From a virus, in IMG/VR virus record IMGVR_UViG_3300045988_151163, positions 1-10,856 of that record: a stretch of DNA of 10,856 nucleotides. One strand, 5' to 3'. Positions within the stretch are counted from its first letter, which is position 1. Every line of letters starts with the position of its first letter. A program made the translations under genes and the position numbers. Under the pieces are notes generated by a model. It saw only the letters and a list, made by a program, of their open reading frames with translations, did no database searches and had not been told where the DNA came from. This document shows positions 7,224-7,646 of this stretch, in pieces.

Positions 7224-7646
7224 TTAAGCAACTCTTTCTACTATAAGATTAGCATTTATTACAGAAATAGCCTGAGAAGAAATGTTTGTTACTCCAATAG
7301 TAGAGCAACACCCCGCAGGCACATCAAGATAAATACTTGCTCCTACATTAAAATACTCACTTACTGCGGCTGGAGTTACTGTCATAGTTGTTGTACCTAC
7401 AGGCTCGCCATCTACAGTTAAAGCAACAGAAATTGCTCCTGCAGTGCCACCTGTTGGTACTGCTATGTTACCACCGAATGTAGCTTTGAATCTAGCTCTA
7501 CACTGCGTAGTTGTGAGACCGCGCAATTTAGTTAAACCAGAACCTTCTCTGTGAATAATGGAGCAGTTACCAGGAACAGCAGTATCCGTGAATACCACAT
7601 TTTGACTTGCTGCAACAGATTGAGCAGCATTAGCTGTAATTTCCAT
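7224..7646 (-). CDS. BclA C-terminal-domain-like (TNF/C1q-like jelly-roll) protein, no collagen repeats
   Basis: ATG at 7646 with AGGAGG 9 nt upstream; the track's GTG at 7652 is 2 codons further up. The C-terminus ...VTNISSQAISVINANLIVERVA parallels B. anthracis BclA ...LALGTSASIIIEKVA. LTVDGEPVGTTTMTV parallels LTIQVNGVPVPGTGSS. Gly/Thr/Ala/Val-rich beta-type sequence with 5 Cys, including a CC pair. Confidence 0.7.
   Translation of the reverse strand: MEITANAAQSVAASQNVVFTDTAVPGNCSIIHREGSGLTKLRGLTTTQCRARFKATFGGNIAVPTGGTAGAISVALTVDGEPVGTTTMTVTPAAVSEYFNVGASIYLDVPAGCCSTIGVTNISSQAISVINANLIVERVA

Follow-up and report, generated by a model that had tools for sequence, protein, structure and literature searches.

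We analyzed a 10,856-nucleotide (nt) stretch of viral DNA (IMG/VR record IMGVR_UViG_3300045988_151163, positions 1 to 10,856; hereafter, the window), which is part of a ~143-kb gut phage, and found that one of its minus-strand genes encodes a stand-alone version of the jelly-roll domain that forms the C-terminal end of the spore-surface protein BclA. This protein of 140 amino acids (aa), p140, is predicted to be a single TNF/C1q-type domain, and its gene directly follows that of a second conserved protein, p264, within a gene cassette that recurs across distant phages. An earlier reading of the window, made from the letters alone (the first-pass annotation), had singled out p140 as a BclA-like domain, but it overlooked the invariant partner p264 as well as the six-gene cassette, and these provide the main functional clues. 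The main interest of the locus lies in the conserved cassette and in p264.

The open reading frame (ORF) of p140 is a genuine conserved gene, in agreement with the first-pass annotation. It runs on the minus strand from an ATG at 7646 to a stop codon at 7224–7226, with a ribosome-binding site, GGAGG (7660–7656), located 9 nt upstream of the ATG. Since an in-frame GTG at 7652 is too near the GGAGG, the ATG is favored as the start, a choice that also fits the beginnings of the homologues (MEIT or MAEY). The GGAGG overlaps the TAG stop codon of the preceding gene, p264, so the two genes are tightly coupled. p140 matched PHROG 20016, a family with no assigned function, from end to end (E = 1e-51). 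Its relatives fall into at least 7976 clusters at 90% identity, many of which are 72–80% identical, and into 632 representatives at 50% identity; among the best 150 of these 632, nearly all are 130–160 aa long. In public assemblies, exact copies of the protein are indexed in 698 blocks, and the contigs that carry it reach ~145 kb. A scan of a genome collection with the single p140 protein returned four loci, and a megablast search of the region against GenBank phages gave no match.

To describe the fold, we used an AlphaFold2 model of p140 based on 69 diverse family members, which had a mean predicted local distance difference test score (pLDDT) of 98.1 and a predicted template modeling score (pTM) of 0.90. 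Every residue scored above 90, and the whole protein forms one compact, all-beta domain, a TNF-like jelly-roll of the type found in BclA_C (PF18573) and the TNF-C1q superfamily. The best matches of this model in the PDB were the C-terminal domain (CTD) of F-BclA, the BclA CTD, ExsFA/BxpB, EDA, and C1q domains, and Foldseek ranked the same proteins first and in the same order, so that the TNF-like fold proposed in the first-pass annotation stands; the outcome it had named as refuting this reading, a lack of hits to the BclA CTD or to TNF/C1q jelly-rolls, did not occur. The nearest structures in BFVD were proteins of 130–142 aa from uncultured gut phages, one of which bears the automatic label "BclA protein."

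The sequence link to BclA runs through other members of the family. The p140 protein of the window gave no match to Pfam BclA_C at E ≤ 1; searches of Pfam, NCBIfam, and PDB sequences with this single protein returned nothing significant, and a profile of the 69 family sequences did not find BclA among PDB sequences. The final strands of p140 had earlier been said to match those of BclA. When the family profile was aligned by hhalign with a BclA CTD sequence, the same strand pair was indeed brought together, but the alignment was not significant (E = 0.034, probability 1.5%). Scanned singly, however, 8 of the 69 family members matched BclA_C, among them P0232, which scored 40.9 bits against a curated cut-off of 38 and covered profile positions 10–128 of 128, and P0203, which scored 29.6 bits. 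P0232 is encoded in the same cassette, is 46% identical to the p140 of the window (E = 3e-20), and itself retrieved nothing from the PDB sequences. Because the link runs through P0232, the membership of the window protein in BclA_C is transitive rather than direct. On the basis of predicted fold and transitive homology, the p140 family is a divergent, phage-borne branch of BclA_C.

The domain stands alone, as had been claimed. Neither the window nor the adjoining 10 kb on each side in the same phage contains a collagen-like GXY run (at least six repeats); no family member carries collagen repeats, and none of the best 150 of the 632 representatives is fused to a fiber protein. Elsewhere, collagen-like GXY repeats were seen in a 708-aa tail-region protein of Butyrivibrio virus Ceridwen (L001 4738–6864) and in L025 (~1975–2700). 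No other case appeared in the 1.47 Mb of related loci, so the cassette is not generally accompanied by collagen.

The cysteine content of p140 is four rather than the five first counted. The adjacent CC pair, by contrast, is a genuine family trait: it is kept in ~75% of the family, with both positions Cys in 51 of the 69 members, neither in 15, and only one in 3, and it is thus gained or lost as a unit. In a few representatives (P0132, P0133, P0244, P0265, P0208, and P0125), the N-terminal part of a neighboring gene product, namely p132, p264, or a 128-aa head-module protein, is joined to a truncated p140. Because the jelly-roll is broken in them, these joins probably reflect deletions or chimeric assembly and not genuine fusions. 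Homology between p132 and p140 was considered and rejected (hhalign, E = 0.07), and since the two are unrelated, the p132–p140 joins, in particular, are probably deletions or assembly joins.

The constant companion of p140 is p264, whose relatives (at least 8000 clusters) are as widespread as those of p140. Its N-terminal motif, GYSLADIAAATG, is nearly invariant. In the alignments, this protein has a hydrophobic segment, W32–W47, bounded by the invariant residues W32, W33, and W47 and followed by a Gly-rich linker; with its flanking Trp residues, the segment looks like a typical membrane span by prediction. A CCC motif lies in the long helix that follows, C150 is invariant, and the C-terminal end consists of a Pro-rich segment (ALxPxPxPxY..NPY) and then a Cys/Gly-rich tail. 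The AlphaFold2 model of p264 was of moderate quality (pLDDT 63). In it, the hydrophobic segment is a short helix and residues 75–232 form a single unbroken one (~160 residues; pLDDT 70–92 for about 110–230), with disordered ends. Searches of Pfam, NCBIfam, and PDB profiles revealed no meaningful family for p264, and matches to the HA2 and HR1 coiled coils were set aside as not significant (E = 0.09–0.6).

Distant relatives of p264 were found in Clostridium perfringens phages, in phage csAssE-Sib, and in several crAss-like phages; those in public crAss-like phage records are annotated as "spike protein/glycoprotein," and in crAss-like cr53_1 the p264 relative comes after a holin gene and a lysis-regulator-like gene. 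In these three groups, p264 is followed by the gene of another small beta-rich protein, one without a match to the p140 profile. The replacement proteins are about 125–146 aa long, and two of the three (XP41-N3 and csAssE-Sib) contain CC motifs. Neither of these two matched Pfam, and the XP41-N3 protein had no match among PDB sequences.

We then assessed synteny by iterated profile searches on the ORFs of related loci. The order p132–p264–p140 was present in 31 of the 31 sources first collected, with p264 directly upstream of p140 in every one. IMG/VR holds at least 558 p264 loci; among 80 that were retrieved with p264, p140 directly followed it in all 75 informative loci, and p132 was present in nearly all of the 80. 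In the window, six minus-strand genes lie close together (p132–p83–p264–p140–p184–p107), with p140 in fourth place, and this six-gene form, p107 included, is typical of phages of 90–200 kb. The cassette of 45-kb phages comprises p132, a divergent ~75-aa protein in the place of p83, p264, p140, and a ~186-aa protein (PHROG 28802) in the position of p184, and the core p132–p264–p140 is found in 40-kb siphoviruses and in phages of 140–200 kb alike.

The position of the cassette varies from phage to phage. In Ceridwen, whose host is Butyrivibrio fibrisolvens, and in contig L031, it immediately follows the lysin and holin genes; the Ceridwen homologues of p132, p264, and p140 are QHJ73766, QHJ73768, and QHJ73769, respectively. 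Several large phages have, immediately ahead of the cassette, a gene with a weak, sub-threshold match to Holin_LLH. The 45-kb phages carry it in the head module, behind the genes for TerL, portal, minor head protein, a 128-aa protein, and a 101-aa protein with a hydrophobic N-terminal segment, and ahead of those for scaffold, major head protein, and adaptor. In Dulem virus 39, it is located near integrase and replication genes; in some phages, it adjoins an antirepressor among early genes; in the 143-kb phage, it follows four paralogous large genes and abuts the replication module; and related large phages have it facing genes that reach ~1900 aa and were judged fiber-like by size and N-terminal sequences only. 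Flanked by terminator-like hairpins and variable in position, the cassette looks like a horizontally mobile accessory unit. Some of its hosts, inferred from prophage-bearing metagenome-assembled genomes (MAGs), are Lachnospiraceae.

Two further observations concern individual loci. A ~280-aa Cys-rich extra gene lies between p264 and p140 in some 45-kb phages and in a Mediterraneibacter MAG (L082, L088 at 6847–7689, L089, L091, L092, L101, and L104; also L009 at 6742–7968); its product had no Pfam match, and the gene is possibly a mobile insertion. In addition, a 3.3-kb cassette contig (L007; ONYG01000072.1) is binned as "uncultured Methanobrevibacter sp.," a label that most likely reflects faulty binning and not an archaeal host.

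In relatives of the window phage, in-frame TAG codons were observed at positions where homologues have Gln, within p140, p264, p184, and many other genes (loci L014, L016–L019, L021, L007, and L008, and 15 of the 80 loci L035–L114; for example, L017 at 10001–10423). This pattern in the sequences indicates TAG-to-Gln recoding in these relatives; in the window phage, the code is the standard one. Across 20 TAG-recoded loci, TAG accounted for 19–42% of Gln positions in five of the six cassette genes (33% in p132), compared with 34% in large fiber-like genes, 1% in DnaE, and 11% in NrdD. As a clean late-gene mark of the cassette, TAG recoding was rejected, replication genes also carrying some TAG codons.

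As a tentative explanation, which we prefer while rating it as somewhat short of probable, we propose that p264 and p140 make up a two-polypeptide anchor–stalk–knob assembly that is produced during infection and acts at a surface, with a leaning toward the envelope of the infected cell. To our knowledge, every characterized TNF, C1q, and BclA domain trimerizes, and by this likeness p140 would form a compact homotrimer. Together, the two proteins would rebuild the layout of BclA, C1q, and membrane-bound TNF ligands: p264 would give the hydrophobic anchor and a long helical stalk replacing collagen, and the p140 trimer would give a globular head or adaptor. For the contact between them we borrow, by analogy, the model of ExsF as an adaptor on the terminal peptides of fiber proteins, in which the clefts between the subunits of a free TNF-like trimer grip the leader peptides of collagen-like spore proteins (PMC12357932); in the same manner, p140 may dock on one of the conserved peptides at the ends of p264. 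The low-complexity proteins p132, p83, and p184 and the metallopeptidase-like p107 could be assembly or processing factors. The complex would act in the envelope of the infected cell around lysis or egress, a site and a late timing that we favor because p264 resembles a membrane protein, because the cassette repeatedly adjoins holin or lysis genes, and, as a weak hint, because its TAG usage resembles that of fiber-like genes.

Several observations weigh against an envelope assembly of this kind. p140 has no signal peptide, so if the stalk of p264 points outward, the two proteins could come into contact only after membrane permeabilization. The long helix of p264 is polar and lacks a clean heptad pattern, and its charge distribution (positive-inside analysis) does not fix the membrane topology. 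The conserved tail of p264 is retained where an unrelated small beta-rich protein replaces p140, and it is therefore not specific to a BclA-like partner. The TAG share is also high in RuvC (46%) and low in p264 (5%), and this is why TAG usage is only a weak hint about timing. Finally, the cassette of the 45-kb phages lies between the minor head protein and the scaffold and capsid genes, which fits a role in the virion better, and all previously known phage TNF-like domains are knobs on the virion surface.

The last two points also underlie the main rival to the envelope model, a virion-surface module in which p140 trimers either sit on the capsid as decoration, at three-fold or hexamer positions, or cap head fibers or whiskers with p264 as the shaft. 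Such a module would stabilize the particle or let it adhere, for instance, to mucus or host glycans. The head-module phages are an abundant group, the TAG usage of the cassette resembles that of fiber-like genes, and many decoration proteins are trimers. However, other phages place the cassette after lysis genes, by an antirepressor, or by replication genes; the hairpins on both sides look like those of a mobile accessory unit and not of a fixed structural gene; and the Trp-flanked hydrophobic segment of p264 would be odd in a capsid protein of a tailed phage. We regard the virion-surface module as rather unlikely. A role on the tail, with the free p140 trimer as a separate, exchangeable distal knob of a fiber, appears very unlikely to us. 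TNF-like knobs are common on fibers, and the cassette comes after four paralogous, length-variable large genes in the 143-kb phage and faces the genes judged fiber-like in related large phages. Nevertheless, p140 is unusually conserved (its many clusters of 72–80% identity and an exact sequence found in hundreds of blocks) and its fixed neighbors, p264 and p132, are not fiber genes, both of which make a tail tip less likely; in siphoviruses, moreover, lysis genes separate the cassette from the tail genes. The receptor-binding tip suggested by the first-pass annotation thus keeps a small share of probability, but it finds no support as originally worded, since p140 is joined to no fiber protein.

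The same annotation had suggested that a free trimer might cap, compete with, or mimic host BclA on the exosporium. The closest structures are indeed exosporium proteins, the Cys-rich and Tyr/Gln-rich proteins of the cassette recall spore-coat proteins, and some of the MAG-inferred hosts are Lachnospiraceae, many members of which sporulate. Against this, the cassette is present in the phage Ceridwen, and we know of no sporulation in its host, B. fibrisolvens; the p264 core also occurs in crAss-like phages, whose hosts are Bacteroidales. p140 showed neither an exosporium leader motif nor collagen repeats, and recoded phages need TAG suppression to produce the cassette proteins, which suggests expression during infection and not in a sporulating lysogen. 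Spore mimicry is, in our judgment, extremely improbable. An anti-phage defense or superinfection-exclusion cassette, in which a sensor or decoy with the shape of a virion knob joins a protease and a membrane effector, would account for a mobile unit with terminator-like hairpins at both ends and variable insertion places, for the pairing of a membrane protein with a metallopeptidase-like protein, and for the antirepressor that adjoins the cassette in some phages. Yet none of the six cassette proteins matched a PADLOC model (0/6 at E ≤ 0.1), the cassette is found in large, probably lytic, TAG-recoded phages, and even distant phages differ very little in its composition and gene order; we consider a defense function very unlikely as well.

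Beyond the envelope assembly itself, we offer a broader conjecture, which we hold to be unlikely, that the cassette is an unrecognized and widely shared phage device in which an exchangeable small beta-rich protein caps or anchors a membrane-bound helical stalk, serving the envelope in egress or superinfection or else the virion. The exchangeable partner, usually with a CC motif, would be BclA-like where the identified hosts are Firmicutes and would have a different fold in the C. perfringens and crAss-like phages. The device could be likened to an exosporium-like or TNF-ligand-like surface structure, the low-complexity proteins acting as a matrix and the small protease aiding assembly.

The features of the cassette and the proteins that replace p140 in other phages are listed below.

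Table. Positions of the cassette genes and hairpins in the window and of the replacement proteins in other phages
Feature	Position	Strand	Remarks
p140, stand-alone BclA_C/TNF-C1q-type jelly-roll (predicted fold)	7224..7646	minus	140 aa; C28, C49, C113, C114
p132, cassette gene 1	8753..9151	minus	Gln/Pro/Tyr-rich N-terminus, small conserved domain, C-terminal helix
p83, cassette gene 2	8480..8731	minus	small Gln/Met-rich protein
p264, cassette gene 3, invariant partner	7660..8454	minus	PHROG 16490
p184, cassette gene 5	6661..7215	minus	conserved ends, Tyr/Ser/Arg/Met-rich low-complexity middle
p107, last cassette gene	6337..6660	minus	small HExxH protein (HEITH)
Intrinsic-terminator-like hairpin and T-run	9329..9346	minus	just upstream of the cassette
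Two-way terminator-like hairpin, 12 pairs	6328..6355		between the cassette end and the converging RuvC gene
Replacement protein after p264	L033 7673-8050		C. perfringens phage XP41-N3; N-terminal CNRRCNCCN
Replacement protein after p264	L032 6912-7325		csAssE-Sib; TCCS, DCCV
Replacement protein after p264	L034 4591-5031		crAss-like cr53_1

The remaining cassette proteins gave few matches. p132 matched PHROG 21718 weakly, and p132, p83, and p184 returned no meaningful family from Pfam, NCBIfam, or PDB profiles. p107 had sub-threshold Pfam matches to metallopeptidases of the ImmA/IrrE, SprT, and DUF6782 types, and it matched PHROG 1233 at E = 2e-14. An intergenic gap of 177 nt (9152–9328) separates the upstream hairpin from p132. 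The plus strand of the window encodes the end of a DnaE-type polymerase, a guanylate-kinase-like protein, NrdD, dUTPase, and RuvC.

Outside the cassette, the gene immediately upstream is split in the window into two minus-strand ORFs of 335 aa (9610–10617) and 83 aa (9347–9598), and in sister contigs it is a single gene of 425–525 aa. It is the last of four tandem, length-variable paralogues (L003 3494–8329), for which our searches found no family and which possibly encode fiber or receptor-binding proteins. NrdD is one 718-aa gene in the window (1981–4137) and in L006; in L003–L005 (13527–15920), it is called as two genes of 419 aa and 294 aa that lie ~250 bp apart, a layout that points to a disruption or to an element lying in between.

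On spore surfaces, knobs of the BclA type are known to serve as fiber tips or anchors, and a free copy in a phage cassette amounts to a second life of this domain outside sporulation. The cassette is among the commoner blocks of unassigned function in gut viromes; it is carried by phages from 40 kb to 200 kb, with p264 reaching into crAss-like phages. Its analysis now has a handle, in that one part has a confident fold and its fixed partner has a clear predicted anchor–stalk–tail anatomy, and since Butyrivibrio virus Ceridwen is a cultured carrier, the role of the cassette is directly testable.

Among known systems, BclA offers the most obvious comparison. It is assembled in the mother-cell cytoplasm and, like p140, has no signal peptide. 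The CTDs of BclA (PF18573; PDB 1WCK) and F-BclA (PDB 9H38), from the Bacillus cereus group, are described by the Pfam model that some of the phage family members match. p140 differs from BclA in that it is encoded by a phage and consists wholly of the domain, without an N-terminal leader or a collagen-like stalk, and it differs from the BclA CTD in carrying a conserved CC pair. Full-length BclA-type proteins combine an exosporium leader with GXY repeats, and p140 gave no NCBIfam or Pfam match to either a leader or collagen; because leader and collagen stalk are absent, p140 is not a BclA protein. In architecture, p140 is most similar to ExsFA/BxpB (PDB 7R1M, 8D02, and 9H3D), the free TNF-like trimers of the exosporium basal layer. 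However, ExsF is a spore protein, its identity to p140 is only ~10%, and no sequence-level link between the two was found.

Phages and other viruses also carry TNF-like domains, namely in the tail fibers of cyanophages A4 and A-1(L), TM4 gp23, PRD1 P5, and the Sf6 needle knob, where they are the C-terminal domains of long fiber proteins. Lectins with a TNF-like fold are also known. In contrast, p140 does not form the C-terminal end of a fiber polypeptide: it is a separate gene product, read from its own ORF with its own ribosome-binding site, and the spore proteins are structurally closer to it than these knobs. A literature search on BclA-like or TNF-like decoration proteins of phages found nothing relevant, nor did we find a paper describing the p140 family or the cassette. 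The closest counterparts are proteins of uncultured gut phages in UniProt and BFVD, such as A0A8S5U2A1 and A0A8S5S925, which are 130–142 aa long and stand alone with the same fold (template modeling score 0.82–0.91); these are members or close cousins of the p140 family, and the name "BclA protein" of A0A8S5S925 is an automatic label. The p140 family is, accordingly, already present in public databases as unnamed or automatically named proteins, and what is new is the occurrence of a known domain, standing alone, within a phage cassette.
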